DNA from: Kofleriaceae bacterium
Lineage (GTDB): Bacteria; Myxococcota_A; Polyangia; Haliangiales; Haliangiaceae
Reading direction: 5' to 3'
Length of the DNA stretch: 64,000 nucleotides
Assembly (NCBI GenBank): GCA_041389925.1
Contig: JAWKQX010000006.1
Coordinates: 343,837 to 407,836 of the forward strand
Part shown: positions 9,288 through 50,696 of the stretch, one piece after another
How the letters are laid out: each line of letters opens with the position of its first letter
Position numbering within the stretch: the stretch's first letter is position 1
Notes under the pieces: generated by a model
Databases searched by the model: none
What the model saw: only the letters and a program-made list of their open reading frames with translations
Told to the model about the DNA's origin: nothing
Made by a program: the position numbers and the translations under genes

Positions 9288-9449
9288 GGGCCAGGTAGTG
9301 CACGCGCGATGCCAGCGAGTGGGGCGCAACAAGCCCTCGAAAACGGCGCAGGAGTGTCGCCGGAGCGTCCAGAAGTTGTCGGGGCGCCCGGCAACGGGTG
9401 ACGACCTGTCGGACGTCCATACACTCGCACCGCGTGGTAGGGTGGCGCC

Positions 9450-9800
9450 ATGGCGGACAAGACGCTGTACTGGAAGAGCACCTGAACGAGCTGCCGTGAC
9501 GCGAGGAGTTCCTTGCGCAGCCTCGGAGTGGAGTTCGAAGACGTCAACTACGCCAAGCAGCGGCTGACGCCGGAGCAGGTGCTCGCGGTCGTACGCGCGG
9601 CGGGCTCGGTCGCCGCGGTGCTCAACGTCCGGCACGCGATCGCCAAGGAGCGTGGCTGGGCGGCCGCGCCACCGCCGGCCGAGGAGTTCGCCGCCGCCGT
9701 CGTGCAGGAGCCCAACCTGCTGCGCCGGCCGATCCTGCTCGTCGGGGGGCAGGCGATCGTCGGCCTCAACCGCACCGCGTACGGCAAGCTCGTCGGGTGA
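9450..9800 (+). CDS. Spx/ArsC-family (thioredoxin-fold, arsenate-reductase-like) protein with an in-frame TGA at the first Cys of the CxxC motif; candidate selenoprotein (UxxC) or a pseudogene
   Basis: ATG at 9450 reads MADKTLYWKST-TGA-TSCRDARSSLRSLGVEFEDVNY..., in frame with ORF 9513-9800. This aligns to the Spx/ArsC N-terminus (...SPSCTSCRKARAWL...). The TGA at 9483-9485 sits exactly where the CxxC Cys would be. An imperfect 13-bp hairpin with an AGUU apical loop spans +6 to +42 after the UGA. Confidence 0.5.
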
Positions 9801-9906
9801 GGTCCGGGACCGGCGCCGCTTGGGGCCGTGGTCGTCGACGGGCTGAGCGCGCGCGGCGCGCGAAAAGTGCTGGCGAGCGCCCGGCCGGCTCTGTATCGTC
9901 CGCGCC

Positions 9907-10464
9907 ATGTTCGTGACCGACGCATTGGCGCGCCTGCTGCCGAAGATGCCGGGGCTGCCCACATTGGACGGAGAGCGCAACCTGGTTCGGGACGCCTGGA
10001 ACCTGTTGCAGCTCGTCCCCGGTGGCAGATCGCTATTCTCACGACTGCTGGGTCGGCTCGCGCCCTACACCGGCTCGATCCACCCGGCGGTGATCGAGCT
10101 GAGCACGGGGCGCGCGGTGGTCGCGATGCCGGATCGCGCGAAGCTCCGCAACCACCTCCAGTGCCTCCACGCCGCGGCGCTGGGCAACCTCGCGGAGCTG
10201 GCGGGGAGCATCGCGCTCGCGTACTCGCTCCCCGATGACGCGCGCTTCATCGTGGCGGGGCTCGAGGTGGAGTACCTCAAGAAGGCGCGCGGGACGATCC
10301 TCGCGACCGGCGAGTGCCAGGCGCCGCGCAGCAACGCGCAGGCGACGTGTGACGTGCACGTCACGTTGCGCGACGCGAGCGGCGAGCTCGTCGCGCGGGC
10401 CGTGGTCCGCAACGTCGTGGGTCCAAAGCCGGGGCTCGAGCGCGAGCCGCTGGATCTCAACTAG
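9907..10464 (+). CDS. DUF4442-type hot-dog-fold (thioesterase-like) protein
   Basis: 185 aa. Same strand and 107 bp downstream of the Spx/ArsC-like gene. The sequence pattern is typical of DUF4442/PaaI-like proteins (assignment from memory). Confidence 0.45.
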   Translation: MFVTDALARLLPKMPGLPTLDGERNLVRDAWNLLQLVPGGRSLFSRLLGRLAPYTGSIHPAVIELSTGRAVVAMPDRAKLRNHLQCLHAAALGNLAELAGSIALAYSLPDDARFIVAGLEVEYLKKARGTILATGECQAPRSNAQATCDVHVTLRDASGELVARAVVRNVVGPKPGLEREPLDLN

Positions 10465-10531
10465 TCAGCTGCGGTTCCCGCTCGACGTCAACCGATCCTC
10501 GTTTCAGGATCTCTCTCTTCGATAGGCTCAC

Positions 10532-11863
10532 TTGATGGACAAGCACCTCCTCCGTCTCCGCACACCGCTCGCCGCGCTCGTGCTCCTCGCGTCCGCGTGC
10601 GGCGCGAGCTCTTCGACCACGCCGACGTCGGCCCCAGCGAGCGCGCCGCCCGCGGCGCCCGCGGCGATCGTCGCCGAGCCGCCGCCGCCGCCGGTCGAGC
10701 CCGTCGAGCCGGTCGAGCCCGTCGAGCCGGTCGAGCCGGTCGAGCCGCCGGCGCCCGTGGCCGAGGGGAAGGACTTCATCAACGACGCGCGCGCCTTCTA
10801 TGGCGCGGTGGCGTGTGGCCCGGGCGCGCCGCCGCCCTCGCTGGATGAGGGCATCGTGTCCAAGCACTGCGCCGAGATGACCAAGCGCTACGAGCGCTTC
10901 CGCGCGCGCTACGTCGTCCCCGCCGGCGCCTTCTTCGCCAAGGTTCGCCCCGCGGAGCTGCCCGACAAGGTCGTCTATCCCTTCGGCGGGGGGGACCTGG
11001 GCTCCGCGCTGGTGACCTTCCCGAACGCCACGGAGATCACGACGATCTCCCTCGAGCACGCCGGTGATCCGACCCGGCTCGTGAGCCTGCGCCGCGCGGA
11101 GCTGCGCGCCGCGCTCAGCGAGTTCCGCGCCGCGGTGCGCGGCCTCCTGACCAACAACGACTCCACCAGCGAGAACATGCGCAAGCTGGAGCGCGGCGGC
11201 ATCCCGGGTCAGCTCTCGTTCCACCTGACCGGCGCCGCGGCGCTCGGCTTCGAGCCGGTGTCGCTGCGCTTCTTCACGCTGGAGGACGACGGCGCGATCC
11301 ACTACCTCGGCGCGGAGGAGATCGACGCGCTCGCCCGGGTGCGCGCCAAGCGCAAGAAGGGCACCTGGGTCGACACCGACTTCTCCGCGGCGTTCACCAA
11401 CATGGAGCTGGTGCTGCGCAACACCGCCGATCCCGCCGCGCCGCTCGTCGTGCACCGCCACTTCGCGGCCAACCTGGCGAACAACGGCTTCCGCGGCTCG
11501 TCGCTGGAGAAGCACCTGCTGGCCAAGGGGACGATGGCGGCGATGACCAAGGCCGCCAGCTATCTGCTCTGGTCGCAGAACTTCGCCGGCATCCGGGACT
11601 ATCTGCTCGCGCACGCGGCGTGGATGGCGTCGGACGCCACCGGCATCCCGGCGGCGAACGCCCGGCGCGCCGGGTTCCGGCAGACCACGTATGGCAAGTT
11701 CATGGGTGCGTTCCTCCCCGACGCGCCGGTCTCCGTCAACGAGACGATGGTCAAGCTCTGGGCCGACCAGCCGCTCCGGAAACTGGCGTTCCGCTACGGA
11801 TACCCGGATAGTCAGGGGAACGTGCACCTGCTGATCACCGCCCCCATCCAAGGACGCCCGTGA
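10532..11863 (+). CDS. Lipoprotein of unknown function with (PVE)6 tandem repeat
   Basis: Signal plus lipobox LLASACG. The repeat (ccggtcgag)x6 at ~10690-10745 encodes PVEPVEPVEPVE. The rest is a ~350-aa domain with no motif I recognise. Confidence 0.6.
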   Translation: MMDKHLLRLRTPLAALVLLASACGASSSTTPTSAPASAPPAAPAAIVAEPPPPPVEPVEPVEPVEPVEPVEPPAPVAEGKDFINDARAFYGAVACGPGAPPPSLDEGIVSKHCAEMTKRYERFRARYVVPAGAFFAKVRPAELPDKVVYPFGGGDLGSALVTFPNATEITTISLEHAGDPTRLVSLRRAELRAALSEFRAAVRGLLTNNDSTSENMRKLERGGIPGQLSFHLTGAAALGFEPVSLRFFTLEDDGAIHYLGAEEIDALARVRAKRKKGTWVDTDFSAAFTNMELVLRNTADPAAPLVVHRHFAANLANNGFRGSSLEKHLLAKGTMAAMTKAASYLLWSQNFAGIRDYLLAHAAWMASDATGIPAANARRAGFRQTTYGKFMGAFLPDAPVSVNETMVKLWADQPLRKLAFRYGYPDSQGNVHLLITAPIQGRP

Positions 11864-12846
11864 GCCGCGCCGCCGCGTTCGTCCTCGCCGCGCTGCTGGT
11901 GTCCTCCGGGGCGCTTGAGCAACCGGCGCCCGCTCGCGCCGACAGCGCGCCGGGCGCCACCGGCAGCGAGGGTCGAGCGCAGGCGCGGATGACGGACACG
12001 CCGGTGCGCGGGGAGCGCGCCGCAGGCCGCCGGGAGGGCGCCAGCCCGCGGCGTGGTCGGTTGGTCAAGGAGGAGGATCAGGTCGCGGGCGGCACGCACT
12101 GGCGGGTCAAGACGGACGCGGGCGCGGTGCACGTCTGGGTCCCGCCGGGCTACGACCGCGAGACCGCCGGCACCGTGGTGTACGTGCACGGCTACTACAC
12201 CGACGCGGACGGCGCCTGGCGCGGCCATTCGCTGGCGCGCCAGTTCCGCGCCAGCAAGCAGAACGCGGTGTTCATCGTCCCCGACGCGCCGAGCGGCAAC
12301 GACCAGGACGTCAAGTGGCCCGCGCTCGCCGATCTGCGCAAGGCGATCTCGCGCGCCAACATCCGCCTGCCCAACGGCCCGACGATCGTCATGGGGCACT
12401 CGGGGGCGTTCCGCACGGTGATGAAGTGGGTCGATCACAAGCTGGTGGCCCAGGTCATCCTGCTCGACGCGCTCTACGGCGGCGAGCGCGCCTTCGATGA
12501 CTTCATCGGCACCGGCAAGCGCGCCAAGCACCACAAGCTGATCGTGATCGGCTCGGACACCGCGGAGGAGTCACGCTCCTTCATCCGGCGCTACCCGTTC
12601 GCCGTCGCCCGCGACGCCATGCCCCGCTCGACCGACGGCTTCACCAAGCGGGAGAAGCGCGCGAAGCTCCTCTACGTGCGCTCGCAGTTCGGGCACATGG
12701 CGATCGTGACGAGCGGCAAGGTCATCCCGCTGCTGCTGCGCCTCACACCGCTGGCGGCGATCGGCGCGCCGTCCCCGGCGGCCGAGCCGGCGCCCGCCGA
12801 GCCGGCGCCCTCGCTGCCGTTCTCGTCGCTGTTCGGCAAGTCGTAG
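11860..12846 (+). CDS. Secreted alpha/beta-hydrolase-like protein (GHSGA nucleophile elbow)
   Basis: GTG start overlaps the previous stop (GTGA), so translational coupling is likely. Signal peptide MSRAAAFVLAALLVSSGA. Carries a GxSxG motif (GHSGA). Confidence 0.5.
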   Translation: MSRAAAFVLAALLVSSGALEQPAPARADSAPGATGSEGRAQARMTDTPVRGERAAGRREGASPRRGRLVKEEDQVAGGTHWRVKTDAGAVHVWVPPGYDRETAGTVVYVHGYYTDADGAWRGHSLARQFRASKQNAVFIVPDAPSGNDQDVKWPALADLRKAISRANIRLPNGPTIVMGHSGAFRTVMKWVDHKLVAQVILLDALYGGERAFDDFIGTGKRAKHHKLIVIGSDTAEESRSFIRRYPFAVARDAMPRSTDGFTKREKRAKLLYVRSQFGHMAIVTSGKVIPLLLRLTPLAAIGAPSPAAEPAPAEPAPSLPFSSLFGKS

Positions 12847-40738: not shown

Positions 40739-40807
40739 AGACGAAGTATAGGTGTCGTTGCTGGTGGGTTGTTCCGGCCTGAGAAGAATGGTTCTCGGGA
40801 ACCGGAC

Positions 40808-43243
40808 ATGGAAGCTGGCACGACCATCGGCCGTTACGAAGTCCTCCGACTGCTGGCCGCAGGAGGGATGGGGGAGATCTACCTGGTGCGGCAGCACTCG
40901 ACGGTGCCGGGCTTCGCGTCCCTCGCCGTGATCAAGCTGCTGATCAACTCGCTGAGCATCAACCCCGCCTTCGTGCAGATGTTCCTGGAGGAGGCGCGGA
41001 TCGCCAGCCGCCTTCAGCACAAGAACATCGTACAGGTGCGCGACGTGGCTCAGCACGGCGGTCAGTACTACATGGTCATGGAGTACATCCCCGGGCACAA
41101 CCTGCGCGAGCTGCTCGGAGACACCTCCATCCTCGATCGCCCGCTGTTCTCGCCACGGCTCGGCGCGGAGCTGTTCGCGGACATCGCCAGCGCCCTCGGC
41201 GCCGCGCACGCGCAGCACCTCGTGCACCGCGACATCTCCCCGAACAACCTGATGATCAGCGATGAGGGCGTGCCCAAGCTGATCGATTTCGGCGTGGCGC
41301 GCGCGCAGAGCACGACGTCGTTGACCAAGCCGGGGACGCTCAAGGGCAAGTTCTCGTACATGGCGCCGGAGTACGTGCGCAGCGAGGCGTACGACCACCG
41401 CGTGGATCTGTTCTCGCTCGGCGTGGTGATGTGGGAGACGTTCACGCGTCGTCGGTTGTTTCGCGGGCCGAGCGCGGCCGAGCAGATCCACCAGATCCTC
41501 GAGGCGCCGATCCCGGCGCTCGACAAGGTGGTGCCGGACTTTCCACACGACCTCTCGACGATCGTGGCGGCCGCGCTCGAGCGAGATCCGCAGCGCCGGA
41601 TCTCCTCCGCGATGCTCCTCGCCGATAGCCTCGCCGAGATCGCGCGCGCGCTCCCGGTGGGGCGCGATCCGACGCTGCGCAAGTGGCTGGAGCGTCGCAT
41701 CCCCGATCGCTTGCGGGAGCGCGCCCAGACGGATCAGCTGCTGGCGACGCTGCCGCACGGCGCGCCGATCCCAGATTTCGGGACCGCGTTCCCCAACGCC
41801 GGCAGCGTGCCCAGCAGCTACGGCAACGCGCTCCATCACGACGCTCATGAGGAGGAGACGGGGCCACGTGAGGCCGTGGCGGCCGCGCCTCGCCGATCGA
41901 GCTCGCCGTCGTCGCTCCCGCCGGGGAGCGGGCTGGCGCCGGGGATGGGGCGCACGCCCGGGAGCACGCTCGCGCCGCGGATCGCGCCCGCGCCGGCCCT
42001 GGGGCCCGCGCCGAGCCACGCTCCGCTCACGGGGCCCGCGCCGGGGCAGGGGCCGTCGCCCGCGCCGGCGCCCGCGCCGCCGGCGCCCAGCGGCCGCGCG
42101 CGGTCGTTGCCCATCGTGCTGGGGTTCCTCGGCGGCATCCTGGCGATCGTGGTCGGGCTGCTGGTGCTGCGCGGCTCCTCGACGGACAAGGGGCCCTCGG
42201 TCGCGGCCGGCGCGGCTGAGGGCTCGCTCGCCGACGCGCATCGCCAGCTCGGCCTGCGCGCCATGGCCGGCGGTGATCTGGAGCAGGCGCGGCGGGAGTT
42301 CGCCGAGGCCGTGCGGCTGGGCGCGGGGGGAGACGTGACGCGGCTGCTCGAGCTGACGACGACCCAGGCCAAGCTGGCGGGGACCCCCGACGCGGCCGCC
42401 GCGGAGCCCGCGCCGGCCGAGGCCCGCGCGGCCGCGGCGGTCGCCGAGCCGGCGGCTCCGGACGAGGTCGTCGCGTCGGCGCCGAGCAGCGTCGCGCCGC
42501 CGGGCTCGGGGGGCTCGGACGGCTTGGACGGCTCGGACGGCTCGGAGGACGACGACGCGGCCGCGCCGCCGTCGCGCCCGTCGTCGCGCAGCGTGCGCTC
42601 GACGCCGACCCGCACCCGAGTCGCGCGCCAGCCGGACGTGAGCGTGAGCGTCGAGCCGGATGTCGCGCCGGCGCCCGTACCGGCGCCGGCGCCGGCGCCG
42701 CCCGCGATGGCGACGGTGACGGTCACGTCGGCGGTCCCCGACGCACAGGTGTTCGTCGATCAGCAGCTCGTCGGCACGGCGCCGCGCAAGCTCGAGCTGA
42801 CCCCGGAGGTCGAGCACGTGGTGGTCGTGAAGACGCGCGGCGGAGAGACGCTGCTCACGCGCCCCGTCCGGCTCGCGGCGGGCGCCACCACCTCCTTCCG
42901 CGTGGTGGCCAGGCCGGCGGCGGCGCCGCCGGCCGCCGCGCCGGCGGTGCCCGCGGTCAAGCCAGCGCGGACGCCGCGCGTCACCTCCGACGGCTCGGTC
43001 GACGCCGGCGCGCGGGTCGTGGCGGCGTGCAACGCGTGCCACGCGCGGACCGGCGCGGCGTCGTTCGGCGGTCGCCGCTATACGCGCGCGCAATGGGAGC
43101 GCTTCTTCGCGGGCGGTCTCCACGATCGATACGTCGGCATCGGCGACCAGATGGGCGCGGGAGAGCTGAGCGCGGCCCGCGCGTTCCTCCGCGCCAACGC
43201 GGCCGACAGCGCGGAACACCAAGGCGCGGGGATCCAGGAGTAG
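40808..43243 (+). CDS. Ser/Thr protein kinase with TM, Pro-rich linker, periplasmic PEGA domain and C-terminal mono-heme c-type (CXXCH) domain
   Basis: Kinase motifs GGMGEIYLV...VIK, HRDISPNN and DFG. TM is LPIVLGFLGGILAIVVGLLVL. PEGA-like segment VTVTSAVPDAQVFVDQQLVGTAPRKLELTPEVEHVVVVK. C-terminus VVAACNACHARTG.... Confidence 0.75.
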   Translation: MEAGTTIGRYEVLRLLAAGGMGEIYLVRQHSTVPGFASLAVIKLLINSLSINPAFVQMFLEEARIASRLQHKNIVQVRDVAQHGGQYYMVMEYIPGHNLRELLGDTSILDRPLFSPRLGAELFADIASALGAAHAQHLVHRDISPNNLMISDEGVPKLIDFGVARAQSTTSLTKPGTLKGKFSYMAPEYVRSEAYDHRVDLFSLGVVMWETFTRRRLFRGPSAAEQIHQILEAPIPALDKVVPDFPHDLSTIVAAALERDPQRRISSAMLLADSLAEIARALPVGRDPTLRKWLERRIPDRLRERAQTDQLLATLPHGAPIPDFGTAFPNAGSVPSSYGNALHHDAHEEETGPREAVAAAPRRSSSPSSLPPGSGLAPGMGRTPGSTLAPRIAPAPALGPAPSHAPLTGPAPGQGPSPAPAPAPPAPSGRARSLPIVLGFLGGILAIVVGLLVLRGSSTDKGPSVAAGAAEGSLADAHRQLGLRAMAGGDLEQARREFAEAVRLGAGGDVTRLLELTTTQAKLAGTPDAAAAEPAPAEARAAAAVAEPAAPDEVVASAPSSVAPPGSGGSDGLDGSDGSEDDDAAAPPSRPSSRSVRSTPTRTRVARQPDVSVSVEPDVAPAPVPAPAPAPPAMATVTVTSAVPDAQVFVDQQLVGTAPRKLELTPEVEHVVVVKTRGGETLLTRPVRLAAGATTSFRVVARPAAAPPAAAPAVPAVKPARTPRVTSDGSVDAGARVVAACNACHARTGAASFGGRRYTRAQWERFFAGGLHDRYVGIGDQMGAGELSAARAFLRANAADSAEHQGAGIQE

Positions 43244-43245
43244 AC

Positions 43246-44952
43246 ATGACTGCATCGTTCTCGACGTCGCGCACCGCGGCGTGCCTCAACGTTCGTTGGC
43301 TCTCGCTCGCGCTGCTCCTCGTCGGCGCGGGCCGCGCGGCCGCGCAGGGAGGTGCGCCCGGGCGGGAGGACGACGGCGCCGAGGAGCCCGCCGCGGGCGC
43401 CGCGGAGCCGAGCGACGCCGAGGATCGCGCGCCGTCGCTCGCGCTCCCGGCGCCGGCGGAGGATGAGGTCGCCGAAGATCGGCGTCGCCTCCGCGAGCTC
43501 GAGGATCGCCTCGACGAGGTGGAGAAGCACTCGACGCTGCAGCGCCTGGAGTGGTCCGGCGACTACCGGACCAGCCTGGCGCGCTACTGGTATCACGGCG
43601 CCTCGCCGGACAGTAACCCGTACGCCCGGCCCACCATCATCGACGGCCGCACCGACGAGCAGTGGATGCACCGCGCGCGCTTCATGATCAAGGCGCAGCC
43701 CTCGGAGAACCTCCGCTTTCGCGGTCGCGTCTCGGTGTTCAAGCGCTTCGGCACCAACACCTCGACCCCGTCGCCGCAGGACTTCTCACAGGGCCGCGTG
43801 CCCTCCGATACCACGCTGCGCATGGACCGCTTCTGGCTGGACTGGTTCCTCACCCCGAAGCTGGCGTTGTCCTTCGGCCGCATCTCGTACTCCGACGGCA
43901 GCCCCGCGGAGCTGCGCGAGAACCTGGAGAAGCCCGACGCCACCTGGGGCCTCACCATGGTCGACGGCGAGTACGAGACCTTCGACATCACCGCCCAGAT
44001 CTCCGACCACGTCCTGGTCCGCGGCTTCTACGCCTCCTGGGCGTTTCCTCGCAACGACGACCTTTTCTCCTCGAGCCTGTTCCTCGACAGCGAGGTCAAC
44101 AACCTGCGCATCCTCGGCGGCAACGCGGACATCTCCTACCCCGCGGCGAAGCTGTTCGCGCAGCTTGGCGCCTACGCGGTGCCGAAGTTCCGGCCGTTCG
44201 CGATCCCGCTGCCCAACCCGGCCTTCTACGCCGATCCGAACGCCAACCCGACCAACGCGCCGCCGCCGCTCGATGGCTCGCTGGTGTTTCCATCGTCGCT
44301 GCCGAGCTCGCTCGGCTCGTACGCGAACCTGAGCCTGATGGTGATGGTGCGAGATCTCGCCGGCGTGGACTTCTTCGCGGGTGGGGCGCTCGGCTTCCTC
44401 AACCCCAATGGCGAGGCCATCAAGTATCGAGGGTTCGCTCCCGATGGAAGCGAGCAGCCGATCTTGACGCTGGTGGGCGCCGATCAGGGGCTCTGGGAGT
44501 ACGACGCCCAGGGCAACCCCACCGTCTTCCGCAACGAACCCGCGCCGAGCCGCACCACGTTCGTGTACCTGGGTGGGCGCTGGACCCTGCCGGTCGGCGG
44601 GCCCTACGCGCCGAAGGTCGGGCTCGAGTACAACTACGGATCTCGATACTCGATCTCGTTTAGCCAGTCGACGGATCTGTTGACCAACAAGCTGGCGACG
44701 CGCGGCAGCGCGTGGGAGACCTACGCCATCCAGCCCATCTCCGAGCGCGCGTTCCTGCGGCTCGATCTGCAGTACATCGACGCGAAGTACACCAGCGGCA
44801 TGCCCGGCAACATCGCGGGCGGGACCGGCTTCTTCGGTAGCCCGGACAGCCCGCTGGCGCCGATGCAGGCGCACGGCGGCACGTCGCCGCCGGTGTCGCC
44901 CTCGGGCCAGAACCTCTACGCGCTGTCCGCGACGATCCACGTCAACTTCTAG
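43246..44952 (+). CDS. Secreted/outer-membrane beta-rich protein (putative porin-like) with N-terminal coiled coil
   Basis: Starts 3 bp after the kinase stop. Signal MTASFSTSRTAACLNVRWLSLALLLVGAGRAAAQ, then coiled coil EDRRRLRELEDRLDEVEK, and a C-terminal aromatic residue (…IHVNF). Confidence 0.5.
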   Translation: MTASFSTSRTAACLNVRWLSLALLLVGAGRAAAQGGAPGREDDGAEEPAAGAAEPSDAEDRAPSLALPAPAEDEVAEDRRRLRELEDRLDEVEKHSTLQRLEWSGDYRTSLARYWYHGASPDSNPYARPTIIDGRTDEQWMHRARFMIKAQPSENLRFRGRVSVFKRFGTNTSTPSPQDFSQGRVPSDTTLRMDRFWLDWFLTPKLALSFGRISYSDGSPAELRENLEKPDATWGLTMVDGEYETFDITAQISDHVLVRGFYASWAFPRNDDLFSSSLFLDSEVNNLRILGGNADISYPAAKLFAQLGAYAVPKFRPFAIPLPNPAFYADPNANPTNAPPPLDGSLVFPSSLPSSLGSYANLSLMVMVRDLAGVDFFAGGALGFLNPNGEAIKYRGFAPDGSEQPILTLVGADQGLWEYDAQGNPTVFRNEPAPSRTTFVYLGGRWTLPVGGPYAPKVGLEYNYGSRYSISFSQSTDLLTNKLATRGSAWETYAIQPISERAFLRLDLQYIDAKYTSGMPGNIAGGTGFFGSPDSPLAPMQAHGGTSPPVSPSGQNLYALSATIHVNF

Positions 44953-45317
44953 ATCCGACGACATCCGACGACGCGTGGCTCGGTGGCGCGGCGGCGCGCG
45001 CGAGGCGCGCTCGGTCGCGGTCACGACCTCCGTGCGCTTGCGCTTTCGGGAGCGAGGCGTTCACACGATCGCGCGGTCGCCATCGCCGGTGGCGAACCTG
45101 GCCAACGTGTGTGGATGCTCCGTCCCGACCGCGGTCACCGACGCGTTGATGCAAGGCGTTGTGGTCCGTCCAAACGAGCCGCCCACCGCGTGTTCGTAGG
45201 TTCTCCATCCCTACAATTCTGGGCCGCCCACTCACGTGCTTGGACTTCATGGAATTCCCGATCTCACTTGCGCGTTCGGCCGCGCGGTGGATGGTCCACC
45301 AGAAGTTAGGAAGTCCA

Positions 45318-45929
45318 ATGAAGAAGCAAAAAGTAGGCACGAAGTTGTTGGCTGTGTTCTTGGCGATCGCGATGGTCGCAGCTGGATGCGCCGCGGAGGG
45401 GCCGCGTCCCAGCACCGAGTTGCCCCGTCAGACGGGGGAGCAGATGTTTCGCGGTCTGGTCTTCGGTGAGGGCGCGGTCGCCGCGCAGGTTCCGGAGATC
45501 TGGGGTAGCTATCAAGCGCCCGAGCTCGACGCGAAGGATCAGGCGCGGCGCGAGGAGATGATCGCGCAGCTCATCGCCGATCTGCGCGAGGCCGACGCGA
45601 CCTTCCTGGATCGCTATGGCGCCGCGATGCAGAGTGGGGATCACCTGTTGATCGAGAAGACGCTCGATGAGAGCGCCGTGCTCGTTCGGCAGGCGGTGGA
45701 GAAGCGCCAGGGCCCGCTGTCGGACAGCAAGGTCGTGAAGGATCCGGGCGGCACCTGTCTCGCCGTGGCACTCGTCGTCGTCGGCGCCCTCGTGGTCGCG
45801 GTGGTCGGCTACGCGGTCTACAACGAGAACGTGTTCTGGGGCGGTGGCGACGAGTTCGGATGGTCCGGGTCGCAGCTCGGTCGCGACCAGGCGGTCGACC
45901 TCATCGCGACGAGGCTCGTCACGCACTAG
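45318..45929 (+). CDS. Small lipoprotein with C-terminal hydrophobic helix; candidate SdpC-like toxin/bacteriocin precursor (assignment by synteny)
   Basis: RBS AGGAAG. Lipobox MVAAGC. C-terminus GGTCLAVALVVVGALVVAVVGYAVYNENVFWGGGDEFGW. It is followed by a strong hairpin and then SdpA/SdpB-family-like genes. Confidence 0.35.
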   Translation: MKKQKVGTKLLAVFLAIAMVAAGCAAEGPRPSTELPRQTGEQMFRGLVFGEGAVAAQVPEIWGSYQAPELDAKDQARREEMIAQLIADLREADATFLDRYGAAMQSGDHLLIEKTLDESAVLVRQAVEKRQGPLSDSKVVKDPGGTCLAVALVVVGALVVAVVGYAVYNENVFWGGGDEFGWSGSQLGRDQAVDLIATRLVTH

Positions 45930-45968
45930 GTCCCACCGAGTGACGTGAACCTCTAGCTCGCCGGTCGT

Positions 45969-45993
45969 GGGGCGTCCGCGCGGCGGACGCCCC
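45969..45993 (+). terminator. Perfect 11-bp stem hairpin GGGGCGTCCGC-GCG-GCGGACGCCCC (intrinsic terminator/attenuator candidate)
   Basis: The inverted repeat is visible 40 bp after the stop at 45929. The T-tract after it is weak (ctatttccctct). Confidence 0.5.
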
Positions 45994-46043
45994 ACGGTTG
46001 GCCCCTATTTCCCTCTGGTCCCTGGCAAGGCTGCGTGATCTCC

Positions 46044-46670
46044 ATGGCTACCACTGACCCCACCGAAGCATCGGCCCCTCCTCTCCCCTCGACTCTTCCC
46101 CCAACGATGGTCGTGTCCGCGGTCGTCGCCCCGTCGGCGCGCGCGCTCGGCGCGCTGACGCTGGCGCTGGCGGCGGCCTGGCTCGTCGTCATCGGCTACG
46201 CGGCCTACCCCGCGCTGCCGCAGAGCCCGGTGCGCCTCCCGCTGGCGGAGCGTGCGCACAGCTACCTCTGGGCGCCGCAAGGGTGGAGCTTCTTCACGCG
46301 CGACCCGCGCGGAGATCGGCAGTTCGTCTATCACAAGGGCGCCTCGGGCTGGGATCCGGTGCTGTTGGCGCCGCACGGGCGGCTGACCAACCTCGCCGGC
46401 CTGCGCCGTCGCTCGCGCGCGCAGGGCGTGGAGATGGCGCTCCTCCTCGAGAATGTCCCGCCCACCGCATGGCGGACGTGCGACGCCCCGGTGCAGGTTT
46501 GCCTGAGCCAGCCCAGCACGCCGCGCGAGGTCCCCAACGTCTCGCCCGATCCGACGATGTGCGGCGACGTCGCGGTGGTGCTGCAGCGGCCATTGCCGTG
46601 GGCGTGGGCGCGCGCTTCGCGCCCGATCACCATGCCGTCCCGCGTGGTGTCGCTGAGGGTGTCATGCTGA
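46044..46670 (+). CDS. SdpA-family (antimicrobial-peptide system) protein-like
   Basis: N-terminal TM (ALGALTLALAAAWLVVIGYAAY), then SYLWAPQGWSFFTRDPRGDRQFVYHKGASGWDP. This resembles the SdpA family as I recall it (assignment from memory). The stop overlaps the next gene's start. Confidence 0.45.
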   Translation: MATTDPTEASAPPLPSTLPPTMVVSAVVAPSARALGALTLALAAAWLVVIGYAAYPALPQSPVRLPLAERAHSYLWAPQGWSFFTRDPRGDRQFVYHKGASGWDPVLLAPHGRLTNLAGLRRRSRAQGVEMALLLENVPPTAWRTCDAPVQVCLSQPSTPREVPNVSPDPTMCGDVAVVLQRPLPWAWARASRPITMPSRVVSLRVSC

Positions 46671-47695
46671 GCGCCCTCGGGAGCAAGGTCCGCGCGGCGA
46701 TCGCGCAGCCGCTGCACTCCAACGTCCTCGGCGTGGCACGCACGGTGATCGCGCTGGGCACGTTGGGCACGCTGCTGTTCAGCCGCGCCAGCGACATCCT
46801 CCGGCCCGCCGTGGGGTTCAGCGAGTCGCCGCACTGCGCGAGCGTGGGCAAGGCCGGGCTGTTCTGCCTCACCGGCGCGGATCATCTGGAGCTGGGGAGG
46901 TGGCTCGCGGTGGCGGCGCTGCTGCTGGTCGCCAGCGGCTGGCGGCCGCGGCTGACCGGCCTGTTGCACTGGTACGTGGTGACCAGCTTGTTCTCCTCCG
47001 GCACGCTGGTCGACGGTGGCGATCAAGCCGCGGTGGTGCTGACGTTCTTGCTCGTGCCGATCACGCTCGCGGATCCGCGACGCTGGCACTGGAGCGCCGC
47101 GCCGCCGGTCTCGCTGGAGCGGACGACCGCGCGGCGCGCGCTGGGCGCGAGCGCGCTGCGCCTGTTGGCGCTGACCTGCGCGTGGGCGCTCCGGCTGCAG
47201 ATGGCCGGGATCTACTTTCAGGCGTGCGTCTCCAAGCTCAAGGTGCCGGAGTGGCAGGACGGCACCGCGGTGTACTACTGGTTCACCGACCCGTGGTTCG
47301 GCATTCCGGAGCCGGTGCGCTCGCTGGTCATGCCGCTGCTCACCAATGGCATGGTCGTCACCGCGATCACCTGGGGTGCGCTGGCGCTGGAGATCTTTCT
47401 CTTCTCCGGGCTCGTGGCGACGCGCCGGACCCGGAGGGCGCTCCTGGTGCTCGGCATTTCGTTCCACGCGATGATCGCGCTCATCCACGGGCTGCTGAGC
47501 TTCGCGCTGGTGATGTGGGGTGGCCTGATCCTGTTTCTGCGGCCGCTGGATCAGGAGTTCGCGGCGGTCCGGCGCCTCACCGAGCGGCTCGGCGACGGCG
47601 TGCGGCTCGTCGGGGCGCGCGTGAGGCGCCGCGCCGGCAACGAGGGGGAGGCCTTGCCCACGCGCGGCGCGCGCGGCGCGGTCGTGCGCTCGTGA
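46664..47695 (+). CDS. HTTM-domain (vitamin-K-dependent gamma-carboxylase-like) membrane protein, SdpB-family-like
   Basis: 343 aa, polytopic, with an N-terminal HTTM-like segment (…VARTVIALGTLGTLLFSRASDILRP…). ATGCTGA overlap with the SdpA-like stop. Confidence 0.5.
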   Translation: MLSALGSKVRAAIAQPLHSNVLGVARTVIALGTLGTLLFSRASDILRPAVGFSESPHCASVGKAGLFCLTGADHLELGRWLAVAALLLVASGWRPRLTGLLHWYVVTSLFSSGTLVDGGDQAAVVLTFLLVPITLADPRRWHWSAAPPVSLERTTARRALGASALRLLALTCAWALRLQMAGIYFQACVSKLKVPEWQDGTAVYYWFTDPWFGIPEPVRSLVMPLLTNGMVVTAITWGALALEIFLFSGLVATRRTRRALLVLGISFHAMIALIHGLLSFALVMWGGLILFLRPLDQEFAAVRRLTERLGDGVRLVGARVRRRAGNEGEALPTRGARGAVVRS

Positions 47696-49452
47696 CCCCG
47701 CGCGAGGCGCCCGTCGAGGACGGATGGGCCGCGCGCGGCGCGGTTGCGCTGCTCGGCGCCGGCGTGCTCGCGTGTGTCCTGCTCGTCTGGCCGCTGCCGC
47801 CGCTCGAGCCGCTGGACTTCCTGCAAGCGAAGTCCGCGGTGTGGCTGGCCGCGGCGTCGCTGGCGTCGGCGTGCTGGCTGGTCGGCCGGCGCGCGTGCGC
47901 GCTCGACGGAGCAGCCGCGGCGCTGGCGCTCGCCGTGGTGCTGGGCCTGGTCGCGACGCTGACCGTCGCAGAGAACCGCTCGCTGGCGTGGTCCTCCTGG
48001 GGACTCTCGACCGGCGCCGCGCTTGGCTTCGGGGTCACGCGCGCGCTGCCCGAGCGGGCACGCGGCCGCCTGCTCCTCGTCGTCCTCGCCGCGGTCCTCG
48101 TCGCTGCCGGCGTCGCCATCCTCGAGGCGTTTCGGCTGACGCCGCACCTGTCCACGGCCCATCGCGTCCCCGGTGGCACGCTCGGCAACCGGAACCACCT
48201 CTCGCACCTGCTGGTGCTGACGCTGCCGTCGATCGCGCTGCTCGGCGTGACCGGGCGCCGCTGGGTGCGCGCGCTCGCGCTCCTCGGCGCGCTGAGCGCG
48301 GGCTACTTGATCGTGCTCGCGCGCTCGCGCGGGGCGTGGCTCGGCGCCGCGCTGGTGATCGCGCTCTGGACCGCGCTGGTCGCGTCGCGACTGCGCCATG
48401 GCGCGCCGCGCTCGACGGGGCGCCGCGCGACGGCGCTCGTGCTCGCGCTGCTGCTCGGCGCGGCCGCCGCGGTGGCGTTGCCCAACCGGCTACGCTGGCG
48501 CTCGGCGCACCCGTACCGGGAGACGCTCTCCTCGCTGGTGGACTCCAGGAGCGGCAGCGGGCGCGGCCGGATGATCCAGTACCGGACGTCGCTCGCGCTG
48601 GCCTCGGAGTCGCTGCTCCTCGGGGTGGGGCCGGGCAACTGGTCGGTGCAGTACCCGCGGGTCGCCGCGCCAGGGGACCCGTCGGTGAACGCGAGCGGCC
48701 TCGAGCCGGTCAACCGGGTGCCGAGCAGCGATGCGCTCGCGATCCTGTGCGAGCGCGGCGTGATCGTCCTGGTGCTCTTGCTCGCGGTGGCGGTGCAGCT
48801 CCTTGCGCGCGCGCGGCGGGCGCTGTGGCGCCGCACGTCGCTCGACGAGGCGCTGGCGCTGGGCGCCGGCGGCGTCACGCTGCTGGCGCTGGGCTGGCTC
48901 GGCGTCATCGACGCGGTGCTGGTCACCCCTGCGGCGGCGTGCGTGGCCTCGGTGGTGCTGGGCGCGCTGGTGCCAAGGCCGACGGCGCCGCCACACCCCA
49001 TCGCTGCGCAGGCTGGCGACGCGGCGAGCGCGGTCGCGAGCGCGCCGTGTCGCGCGGCGTGCGTGGCTCGCACGTGCGCCGCGGTGGCGCTCGCCGTGCT
49101 GGGGCTCTTGGGGGCCTCGCGCGAGGCCGCGCTTCTGGTGGTGCGTCACCAGGCGCGGACCGCGGCGCGCCCCGAGGACGTCGAGGCGCGCGTCGTGCGC
49201 TACGCGGGCGCCGACTACCCGGCACGGATGACCCTGGCGATGCGCTGGGCATTCGCTGGGGAGTGCGACAAGGCCGCGACGCATCTGGACGCCGCGGCGC
49301 GGCTCCTACCGGCCGCGACGGCGCCGGCGCGCCTCGCGGCGTCCTGCGCGGCCCGGCGCCCGCGCGCGGCGACCGGCTCCCGACAAGCGGAGCCTTCGCG
49401 ATCGCCGCGCTCGGCGGATCGTCGGGGCGAGCCTCCGCGAGCGCCGCGCTAG
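47692..49452 (+). CDS. O-antigen ligase-like (Wzy_C/RfaL family) polytopic membrane protein
   Basis: GTG start overlaps the HTTM gene's stop (GTGA). The Wzy_C-type core GTLGNRNHLSHLLVLTLP is followed by further TM helices and a long Ala-rich C-terminal region. Confidence 0.5.
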   Translation: MTPREAPVEDGWAARGAVALLGAGVLACVLLVWPLPPLEPLDFLQAKSAVWLAAASLASACWLVGRRACALDGAAAALALAVVLGLVATLTVAENRSLAWSSWGLSTGAALGFGVTRALPERARGRLLLVVLAAVLVAAGVAILEAFRLTPHLSTAHRVPGGTLGNRNHLSHLLVLTLPSIALLGVTGRRWVRALALLGALSAGYLIVLARSRGAWLGAALVIALWTALVASRLRHGAPRSTGRRATALVLALLLGAAAAVALPNRLRWRSAHPYRETLSSLVDSRSGSGRGRMIQYRTSLALASESLLLGVGPGNWSVQYPRVAAPGDPSVNASGLEPVNRVPSSDALAILCERGVIVLVLLLAVAVQLLARARRALWRRTSLDEALALGAGGVTLLALGWLGVIDAVLVTPAAACVASVVLGALVPRPTAPPHPIAAQAGDAASAVASAPCRAACVARTCAAVALAVLGLLGASREAALLVVRHQARTAARPEDVEARVVRYAGADYPARMTLAMRWAFAGECDKAATHLDAAARLLPAATAPARLAASCAARRPRAATGSRQAEPSRSPRSADRRGEPPRAPR

Positions 49453-50696
49453 TCGCACGCCAGCGCGGAGAAGACGTGCTCCTCGAGCAGGCGCGCGGTC
49501 TGGTCGTGCATCCCGCGGGTGTTGAAGTTGGTGGTCGTGACGACGGCGACGGCGTCGCGCGCCGGCAGCACGACGGCGTGGATGCCGCCGTTGCCGGACA
49601 TGTACCAGCCGGTGGTCTCGCCGCAGGAGGTGGCATAGGGCCGCTGCCACATCAAGTAGCCGTAGCCGTGGATCCCGCGCGGGTCCGTGGAGGGAGAGGG
49701 CTTGACGTAGGACGTGAGCATGCGGTCGATCCAGGTCTCGGGCACGAGCTGCGCGCCTCCAGAGTGGCCGCGGTCGAGCACGAGCTGCGCGACCTTGAGG
49801 AGATCGCCCGCGCGGATCCGGAGCTGCCCGCTGCCGGCGACCTCACCCGTCGGCGAGCGGTTCCAGCGCACCGGAGCGACGCCGAGCGGCGCGAACAGCT
49901 CCGCTTCCACAAAGCGGTCGAGCGGCTGTCCGACCGCGCGCTCCAGGATCTGCCCGAGGAGAAACGCCCCGGCGGTGCAGTACGCGAACGAGCCGCGGCC
50001 ATGCGCGTCGCGGGAATAGGACGCGCGCAGCGGCAACGCGACCGCCCAGCGCGCCCACACCTGCTGGGGGTACATGTTCTCTTCGTTGCCGGGGCTCTGC
50101 TCCTCGTCGTCATCGCAGTCGAGCGCCGACGACATGGTGAGCAGATCTGCCAGCGTGATCTGCGCCTTGGCCGGCTCATCGTGGGCGTACGGCCGCAGAT
50201 CGGCGAGGTACGCGAACGCCGGGTCGTCCACCGAGCGGAGCTGGCCGCGCGAGAGCGCGAGGCCCACGGCCAGCGCGGTGAAGGACTTGGTCACGGAGCG
50301 GACGTCGTGCAGCGTGTCCGCATCGGTGCCGCCGAAGTGGCCTTCGTAGAGGAGCACGCCGTGCTGGCTCGCCATGACGCTGGTGGTGCGCGGAAAGTCG
50401 CCGGCCTCGATGGCGGCGGTGAGGCGCGCGGCGAGCGCGGGAGCCGGTGGCGCAGCGGCGCGCTCGGCGGCGGGGCGGTCCGCGCGCGGGCGCGCCCGGC
50501 AGCCGAGCGCAAGCGACGAGACCAGCGCGAGCAGCGCGAGCAGCGCGATCTGTGTGAGCGACCCGCGCGACCCGACCTGCGCGGCGTCATGCCCGCGGCG
50601 CGGCGCGGCGCGCGTGGACGCGGACGTGGATGCGGACGCGGACGCGGACGCGGGGCAATCGGTGAGGCACGACATCGAGCGACTCGCTTTCTCCAT
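49449..50696 (-). CDS. Serine hydrolase / beta-lactamase-family lipoprotein (class C/PBP4-like)
   Basis: The SxxK motif is SVTKSF. Lipobox-like SLALGC. Start taken at MEKASRS; an earlier start is possible. The (gcggac)n repeat encodes SASASASTSAS near the N-terminus. Confidence 0.6.
   Translation of the reverse strand: MEKASRSMSCLTDCPASASASASTSASTRAAPRRGHDAAQVGSRGSLTQIALLALLALVSSLALGCRARPRADRPAAERAAAPPAPALAARLTAAIEAGDFPRTTSVMASQHGVLLYEGHFGGTDADTLHDVRSVTKSFTALAVGLALSRGQLRSVDDPAFAYLADLRPYAHDEPAKAQITLADLLTMSSALDCDDDEEQSPGNEENMYPQQVWARWAVALPLRASYSRDAHGRGSFAYCTAGAFLLGQILERAVGQPLDRFVEAELFAPLGVAPVRWNRSPTGEVAGSGQLRIRAGDLLKVAQLVLDRGHSGGAQLVPETWIDRMLTSYVKPSPSTDPRGIHGYGYLMWQRPYATSCGETTGWYMSGNGGIHAVVLPARDAVAVVTTTNFNTRGMHDQTARLLEEHVFSALACD

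Follow-up and report, generated by a model that had tools for sequence, protein, structure and literature searches.

We analysed a 64,000-nucleotide (nt) stretch of the contig JAWKQX010000006.1 (hereafter the window), which carries at positions 45318-49452 of its + strand a four-gene operon related to the sdp cannibalism-toxin genes of Bacillus subtilis. Judged from open reading frames and family matches, the genes, here called g1 to g4 and all on the + strand, stand in the order C-A-B followed by a Wzy_C gene: g1 (45318..45929) encodes an SdpC-family pre-pro-lipoprotein of 203 amino acids (aa), the putative toxin precursor; g2 (46044..46670) encodes an SdpA-family protein of 208 aa, anchored in the membrane by its N-terminus and carrying a Cys-rich domain; g3 (46664..47695) encodes an SdpB-family polytopic membrane protein of 343 aa with an HTTM domain; and g4 (47692..49452) encodes a membrane protein of 586 aa with a WaaL/PglL-type (Wzy_C) fold and a C-terminal TPR-like domain. 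The sdp toxin family is already known, and the WaaL-like fourth partner has not been described before; as judged from the sequences compared below, the new element is a dedicated small WaaL-like subclade that has been recruited to the sdpCAB cassette in Myxococcota.

The operon is compact. The g2 stop and the g3 start overlap by 7 nt, the g3 stop and the g4 start overlap by 4 nt (GTGA), and g4 faces a convergent gene for a beta-lactamase-family protein and is therefore the final gene of the unit. The public copies of the g1 and g4 proteins are 100% identical to the window versions. An earlier reading made from the letters alone (the sequence-only reading) had described this cluster, and all of the features it described are present at the positions it gave; its description of the Wzy-like protein as fused into the operon holds in the sense of translational coupling, but not in the sense of a protein fusion. 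The host is, as that reading supposed, a myxobacterium, represented by a metagenome-assembled genome of the Kofleriaceae (Myxococcota, Polyangia, Haliangiales).

An SdpC-type precursor with SdpA and SdpB

The product of g1 matches the NCBIfam model TIGR04032 (toxin_SdpC) over profile positions 7-171 of 172 (E = 1e-26, 93.8 bits), and its public copy bears a precomputed match to PF26137 (Toxin_SdpC); the local Pfam scan gave no match for g1. Its N-terminus combines a positive charge, a hydrophobic stretch and the lipobox VAAG-C24, so that a signal peptide with lipobox (MKKQKVGTKLLAVFLAIAMVAAG followed by C24) can be read from 45318..45389, and alignments place a Cys at the equivalent position in nearly all homologues from Gram-negative (diderm) bacteria. 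The NCBI gene call starts at Met43 and yields a 161-aa 'hypothetical protein' without signal peptide and lipobox. Because the homologues align over the full 203 aa and the lipobox Cys is near-universal in diderms, the longer start is preferable, and the 203-aa reading corrects the public annotation of the precursor.

Homologues share two motifs in the N-terminal part of the protein, FRGLVFGEG..PEIW and DxxF.DR[FY]G..QSGDH (QSGDHLLIE), and a tail, L187..D190..IATRL; between these conserved flanks the alignments show a segment without conservation. In g1 this hypervariable core begins with the near-invariant T146-C147, which open a hydrophobic stretch (CLAVALVVVGALVVAVVGYAVYNENVFW, C147 to about W174), and it lies at almost the position occupied by the peptide SDP in B. 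subtilis. We therefore presume that C147-G177 (CLAVALVVVGALVVAVVGYAVYNENVFWGGG, 45756..45848) represents the mature peptide, with putative cleavage sites at its ends. The AlphaFold2 model of g1 agrees with such a division, as it contains a confident helical scaffold at residues 38-131 and a helix at 189-199 (predicted local distance difference test, pLDDT, about 90), with a pLDDT of 31-45 across residues 135-185. A fold search of the PDB with this model gave no meaningful relative.

The two following genes are assigned with more margin. The g2 product matches SdpA models in both Pfam (PF17418; E = 3.9e-43, 147.1 bits, cutoff 25) and NCBIfam (TIGR04034; E = 1.3e-34, 119.5 bits, cutoff 53.1), contains the segment QGWSFFTRDPR, and has the conserved PQGWSFFTRDPR motif and the four Cys of the family. 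SdpA homologues from Bacillota to Myxococcota have a single hydrophobic helix at the N-terminus and conserve four Cys, the latter aligned as C-x6-8-C, one further Cys and a last one at or near the C-terminus; this pattern suggests that the family has a disulfide-bonded extracytoplasmic domain, on the side where the exported precursor would reside. The g3 product matches SdpB TIGR04033 over profile positions 7-276 of 276 (E = 5.8e-81, 272.1 bits, cutoff 178.4) and the HTTM domain PF05090 (E = 3.5e-9, 37.1 bits, cutoff 27.7), and shares 61-71% identity with the SdpB proteins encoded at the other Wzy_C-linked loci described below; a phmmer search of g3 against PDB sequences gave no matches. With profile matches for g1-g3, those of g2 and g3 above the curated cutoffs, the proposed SdpC/SdpA/SdpB-family cluster is borne out.

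The SdpC family is large, with 1,922 representatives at 50% identity (E <= 1e-3), and the window member is not the first to be noticed outside Bacillus: models of the family exist (TIGR04032-34, PF26137), and an SdpC homologue of Myxococcus xanthus was catalogued in 2013 as TC 9.B.139.2.1 (PMC3924187). Therefore, the description of the locus as an uncharacterised variant is apt for its Wzy_C-linked form, but not for the family as such. Our literature search for non-Bacillus members of the SdpC family yielded no study beyond mentions in genome mining.

A WaaL-like gene linked to sdpCAB

A database search with g4 returned five clusters of homologues at 50-55% identity, followed by a sharp fall to 43% or less. 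At every distinct locus with a homologue of at least 50% identity (six of six, the window included), sdpC-sdpA-sdpB lie directly upstream of the g4 homologue, in agreement with the earlier assignment of the Wzy_C gene to the unit. The other linked loci, given here with our survey labels, are L001 (a metagenome contig), L085 (Pyxidicoccus trucidator), L086 (Corallococcus sp. M7), L087/L088 and L174. The linked loci represent at least three genera and have different flanking genes, and the 4-nt overlap between sdpB and g4 is retained in three of them. Their pairwise identities are 53-70% for g4, 56-69% for SdpA, 61-79% for SdpB and 38-54% for SdpC, the cores of which are unrelated.

More distant g4 homologues behave differently. 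Among 80 metagenome loci with g4 homologues of 31-41% identity, 31 of them with upstream sequence exceeding 2.5 kb, none contains sdpA, sdpB, sdpC or sdpI. The scan, which took the Sdp-linked g4 clade as its query, brought no new cassettes to light and was used as a negative control. Nor are sdp genes linked to three other distant homologues, two of them apparently standing alone and one lying beside a peptidase M48 gene.

The precursors of the linked clade are of two kinds. The cores of the window and of L001 are hydrophobic and SDP-like. In contrast, four of the six linked loci encode an SdpC with a long polar repeat core and no hydrophobic helix, and g4 is still present and coupled there. 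These polar-core precursors lie at L085:4666-5343, L086:4661-5371, L087:4589-5353 and L174:2770-3609, and a further one (P0009) lies at L093:2425-3195. The L085 core consists of Y/T/D repeats such as YDFTNTYAYDLTYAYDFTYDLTY, and those of L086/L087 and L174 are about 70-115 aa long and rich in N/D/T/G, for example SGNTMEANTISGNDELENTESGNTYL. Among about 150 family representatives, polar cores were found only in the linked clade and in P0009, the contig of which stops just after the precursor and leaves no sequence to show a Wzy_C linkage. Because g4 diverges in the manner of SdpA and SdpB and stays with polar cores, it appears to go with the machinery and not with a specific core.

Fold and conserved residues of g4

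The g4 product matches Wzy_C (PF04932) over residues 200-364 (E = 6.4e-13, 49.2 bits, cutoff 31.7), is matched by no NCBIfam model and is publicly annotated as 'O-antigen ligase family protein'. With its AlphaFold2 model (pLDDT 87.3, predicted template modelling score 0.88), the top Foldseek match in the PDB was WaaL (7tpg_B; E = 1.4e-5, target TM-score 0.57, about 16% identity), followed by RodA (8tj3_B); phmmer of g4 against PDB sequences gave no matches. A full-length g4 profile found only TPR proteins in the PDB, the C-terminal 100 or so residues being TPR-like, whereas a profile of the trimmed core found the O-oligosaccharyltransferase 9rmk_A (E = 0.0024), presumably a PglL-type enzyme. 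With 9rmk_A, g4 has in common a GxxGxRNxxxH motif (G162-H172 in g4) and an S-R motif (R213). Thus, g4 resembles WaaL (7TPG) and 9RMK in its Wzy_C domain, its multi-helix membrane fold and these two motifs. It differs from them in having about 13 helices instead of 12, in its added periplasmic TPR-like tail, and in being encoded in a peptide-toxin operon and not in a lipopolysaccharide or glycosylation locus.

The most consequential difference concerns the active site. In WaaL and PglL, the periplasmic His of the H-N-x-x-L...E-x-G motif is catalytic. The 9rmk_A segment T-H-S-H-N-I-V-L-Q-L-L-A-E-M-G aligns, with moderate local confidence, to P-S-S-D347-A-L-A-I-L-C-E354-R-G in g4, which offers no counterpart to the T-H-S-H-N His; in its place, at or near the canonical position, stands Asp347, which is invariant in the g4 family. 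In an alignment of Sdp-linked and unlinked family members together (A2), the same replacement of H-N..E-x-G by P-S-S-D-W..E-R-G is seen throughout, also in the stand-alone members from Gemmatimonadota and from soil metagenomes. On these alignments, the g4 family forms a branch of the O-antigen-ligase superfamily that lacks the His and has a TPR-like tail on the periplasmic side. As the canonical His is missing, glycan-transfer chemistry is not assured, and the transfer of an undecaprenyl-pyrophosphate-linked glycan by g4 to an acceptor is accordingly uncertain.

Helix order and the positive-inside rule indicate about 13 membrane helices in g4. When mapped on the resulting topology model, the invariant residues R158, R167, N168, H172, R213, R293, GVGPGNW, D329, D347, E354 and D407 would lie on the periplasmic side, as would the TPR-like tail with its conserved Cys525/Cys552. 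Residues invariant in A2 are necessarily present in the linked clade as well, and their retention there suggests that an ancestral enzyme activity has been kept.

Survey of other sdpCAB loci

With an SdpB alignment as query, one genome per species was scanned, which yielded 80 loci in Myxococcota, Actinomycetota, Bacteroidota, Acidobacteriota, Gemmatimonadota and Bacillota; their gene order was assigned by local profile searches. The order is C-A-B in at least 62 of the 80, and four more that were classed as partial also read C-A-B; the order A-B-C occurs in five, three of them Bacillota. The gene order of the window, which the sequence-only reading had taken for a peculiarity, is therefore the usual one outside Bacillota. 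A Wzy_C gene is found at none of these 80 species-representative sdpB loci. The non-Bacillota sdpCAB loci (Myxococcus, Pyxidicoccus, Streptomyces, Bacteroidota, Acidobacteriota and Gemmatimonadota) share with the window the C-A-B order, a hairpin after sdpC, the hypervariable core and, in diderms, mostly a lipobox signal, but after sdpB they have SdpI, CPBP, an alpha/beta-hydrolase or an unrelated gene.

Immunity-type genes are among these neighbours. Immediately downstream of sdpB and in the same orientation, L008, L059, L063 and L069 carry a gene for an SdpI-family protein, and L002, L009 and L074 one for a CPBP/Rce1-like protein; SdpI, CPBP and Wzy_C proteins did not occur together at any surveyed locus. 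To look for an SdpI immunity protein (PF13630), we built a hidden Markov model from four SdpI-like proteins encoded beside sdpB, each verified with Pfam; searched against all frames of the 64-kb window, it gave no match. Neither SdpI-like nor CPBP-like genes were detected anywhere in the window, or up to about 7 kb away from the other Wzy_C-linked loci, in keeping with the earlier remark that SdpI is lacking. As to a regulator, the immediate neighbours of the operon encode DUF3373 and beta-lactamase-family proteins, and no search aimed at an ArsR-type SdpR was made. The two outcomes that had been named beforehand as telling against the cluster, namely no SdpA/SdpB similarity and no conservation as a unit, were both checked; similarity and conservation were found instead.

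The survey also revealed other variation. At four loci from different phyla (L011:5998-7527, L023:7967-9526, L066:7945-9279 and L077:7980-9332), the genes that follow sdpB encode proteins related to one another, 444-519 aa in length, for which one or two transmembrane helices are predicted; the L011 member, the only one scanned against Pfam, is an alpha/beta-hydrolase, and these proteins may be a further accessory that recurs in such systems. At several loci, sdpC is present as two or three tandem genes, each time with differing cores (L001:8001-9220, L003:1054-2522, L074:4386-6266 and L029:22-3757), and L029 shows a tandem A-B-A-B-C arrangement; different cores in tandem fit a diversification of the toxin cargo.

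The stem-loop and expression signals

A GC-rich stem-loop lies between g1 and sdpA (45960..46002, + strand). Its perfect stem of 14 bp with a 3-nt loop (45966-45996) extends to 20 pairs over 45960-46002, with a free energy (dG) of -40.6 kcal/mol. The sequence-only reading, which counted 11 bp, thus understated it: the hairpin at 45966-45996 is the longest perfect one within the window, and in first-order Markov simulations of the window, perfect stems of at least 11 bp numbered 0-3 per 64 kb. Folding of the whole 45925-46045 region gave a z-score of only -1.4, and the local perfect-stem count is the informative test. On the 3' side there is only a weak T-tract (CCCTATTTCCC). A terminator scan of 44800-49800 found only two terminator-like sites, both within g3 and no more than expected by chance; it skipped the 45966-45996 hairpin because the T-run is missing. 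We infer that the stem-loop acts as a partial terminator or mRNA stabiliser.

Such a structure is not special to this locus. Strong hairpins stand at the same place in all ten other sdpC-sdpA loci examined, with dG from -22 to -45 kcal/mol and unrelated sequences, and the survey therefore rules out both the hairpin and the C-A-B order as locus-specific traits. A hairpin so widespread after sdpC would be consistent with a conserved function in balancing precursor against enzyme transcripts. In lantibiotic operons such as nisA-nisB, attenuator or terminator stem-loops likewise stand behind the precursor genes. The likeness to these operons, which we draw from general knowledge, lies in a strong stem-loop between a small precursor gene and the maturation genes, an arrangement that would allow for a surplus of precursor transcript along with read-through; the window hairpin differs in having no typical intrinsic-terminator U-tract.

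Other signals are sparser. An AGGAAG ribosome-binding motif (45305-45310) precedes the g1 ATG by 5 nt, and Rfam and tRNA scans of the locus gave no matches. The G+C content of g1 is 66.3%, compared with 72-77.5% in g2-g4 and a window mean of 72.0%, and the minimum of the neighbourhood (0.60 at 45150-45449) covers part of the upstream gap and the start of g1. The lower G+C content of the precursor gene is thus real but modest, as the upstream DUF3373 gene also has 68.7%.

Discussion

We propose that the operon is an SDP-type ribosomal peptide toxin pathway in a diderm cell, in which g4 is a dedicated periplasm-facing accessory enzyme, and we give this reading as a whole a probability of roughly 0.45. 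Its parts differ in strength: the system is very probably an SDP-like processed-peptide pathway, and it is only tentatively that we assign g4 to tailoring or maturation, which we slightly favour over immunity.

A single promoter upstream of g1, presumably located together with the 5' untranslated region in the 366-nt gap that follows the DUF3373 gene (44953..45317, + strand), would drive all four genes. The stem-loop would keep the precursor mRNA in excess of the read-through message for g2-g4, either by partial termination or by transcript stabilisation, and the translation of g2-g4 would be coupled through the overlaps that we observed. The g1 product would be exported by Sec and, to judge from its lipobox, lipidated at Cys24, and its scaffold (the N-domain and the C-terminal helix) would present the insert from C147 to about G177 to SdpA and SdpB on the periplasmic side. 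If they act as their homologues do in Bacillus (PMC6818787), SdpA and SdpB would together process pro-SdpC and release the active, secreted antibacterial peptide, which would then damage target membranes. On the same membrane face, g4 would handle the exported precursor or its product, most likely by transfer of a lipid-linked (undecaprenyl-pyrophosphate-type) group or by aiding maturation or release. A more specific version, in which g4 attaches a lipid-carrier-derived glycan or something similar to the SdpC precursor or product and the N/D/T/Y-rich cores are heavily modified cargo, we consider improbable.

The comparison with sdpABC-sdpRI of B. subtilis shows both the basis and the limits of this proposal. 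The three core proteins are homologous (TIGR04032, TIGR04034 and TIGR04033). The SDP peptide has two Cys, which form a disulfide, whereas g1 has a single Cys at the start of its core. B. subtilis SdpC is also 203 aa long, and SDP corresponds to C141-S182 (PMC6818787); both precursors have an N-terminal export signal and a hydrophobic segment, beginning at C147 in g1 and at C141 in SdpC. The window differs in its gene order (C-A-B versus A-B-C), in the lipoprotein signal of g1 in place of a type-I signal, in having no detectable sdpI, in its coupled WaaL-fold gene and in its diderm host. The yitPOM paralogue offers a precedent for exchanging both cores and accessory membrane proteins, because the YIT core is unrelated to SDP and the immunity protein YitQ is a membrane protein unlike SdpI (PMC6818787). 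However, yitQ belongs to an operon of its own further upstream, its product is no Wzy_C protein, and that system has no WaaL-like component. Genes for membrane proteins also adjoin other sdpABC homologues (PMC6818787).

Several observations weigh against our proposal. The score of g1 is slightly under the curated NCBIfam cutoff (93.8 versus 99.2 bits), no sigma-70 consensus promoter was found in the scan of 44800-49800, and the hairpin has no good U-tract. g4 lacks the catalytic His that is canonical for Wzy_C proteins, residues 340-350 being free of His, and the window core is hydrophobic and poor in Ser/Thr and hence not an obvious glycosylation substrate. The slot after sdpB is filled elsewhere by the immunity-type SdpI and CPBP proteins, and the window contains no other immunity candidate, which speaks for the immunity reading. 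The six linked loci form one clade, and their shared traits may stem from common descent and not from functional coupling. Finally, no experiments are known on any non-Bacillus member of the family.

The possibility that g4 is the producer's immunity protein, an inner-membrane protein standing in for SdpI (or YitQ), is the rival to be taken most seriously, unlikely as we think it. Sdp-type immunity proteins are known to be non-homologous membrane proteins (PMC6818787), and the genes that take the same slot in relatives, of the SdpI family or CPBP/Rce1-like, are both associated with bacteriocin immunity. That SdpI, CPBP and Wzy_C did not occur together at any surveyed locus, and that neither of the first two was detected in the window or in the roughly 7 kb around the other linked loci, points the same way. 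However, g4 is kept (53-70% identity) and coupled even with polar cores and diverges like SdpA and SdpB, not like the core. The linked clade also retains the residues that are invariant across the whole family, stand-alone homologues in other phyla included, and many sdpCAB loci have no adjoining immunity-type gene at all, which shows that adjacency is not obligatory.

Two other explanations place less weight on a toxin or on its link with g4. Rather than a toxin, the product could be a surface or outer-membrane lipoprotein that displays its variable insert, which g4 might glycosylate, and serves in adhesion, kin recognition or matrix functions, with SdpA and SdpB as assembly factors. The lipobox in all clade members would suit such a role, as would the polar N/D/T/Y inserts of four of the six linked loci and of P0009, which are implausible as pore-forming helices, and the membership of g4 in a superfamily of periplasmic glycan ligases and O-oligosaccharyltransferases. 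We nevertheless hold this to be quite improbable, since the cores of the window and of L001 are classic hydrophobic SDP-like ones behind the near-invariant T146-C147, g4 is without the catalytic His, and SDP and YIT, the only experimentally studied members of the family, are both toxins (PMC6818787). Least probable is the view of g4 as an ordinary ligase or polymerase of envelope polysaccharides, lying downstream by chance and with no functional tie to sdp. It is indeed annotated as an O-antigen ligase family protein, and its distant homologues occur without sdp genes, mostly stand-alone in housekeeping contexts. Yet such a gene would hardly be linked to sdpCAB at six of six loci of at least 50% identity, in three or more genera with differing flanks, or share a start/stop overlap with sdpB in three of them, and no glycosyltransferase or polysaccharide genes are adjacent to it in the window.

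For contact dependence of the toxin, one of the two modes that the sequence-only reading suggested, we found nothing in support. SitA toxins of Myxococcus are delivered by outer-membrane exchange, and a similar delivery of the g1 lipoprotein is a matter of speculation.

The WaaL-fold cassette is present in cultured, tractable strains, Corallococcus sp. M7 and Pyxidicoccus trucidator. It thus provides a handle on the ways in which diderm bacteria produce such peptides, deal with them and survive them, and on whether O-antigen-ligase-type enzymes have been recruited to peptide tailoring or immunity. If glycan tailoring were true, this would be the first bacteriocin-like pathway with an O-antigen-ligase-type enzyme, and it would define a class of glycosylated, lipoprotein-borne effectors in myxobacteria.

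Surroundings of the cassette

Upstream of the operon, at 40769-44952 of the window, lie genes for a Ser/Thr protein kinase and the DUF3373 protein; the kinase has a weak PEGA-domain match (E = 5.9e-4) under the Pfam cutoff. Downstream, on the - strand, are genes for the beta-lactamase-family protein, a DUF2071 protein and a 953-aa Laminin_G_3 (LamG-like) protein with a sub-threshold Calx-beta match. None of these flanking genes of the window recurs beside the cassette in its relatives. The P. trucidator locus (L085) has a second, divergent Wzy_C paralogue (9288-11216, - strand) about 0.5 kb downstream of the cassette, and fragments of integrase/transposase (rve) genes on either side, at 1834-2082 and 12406-12777, which suggests that the cassette there lies in a mobile or rearranged region.

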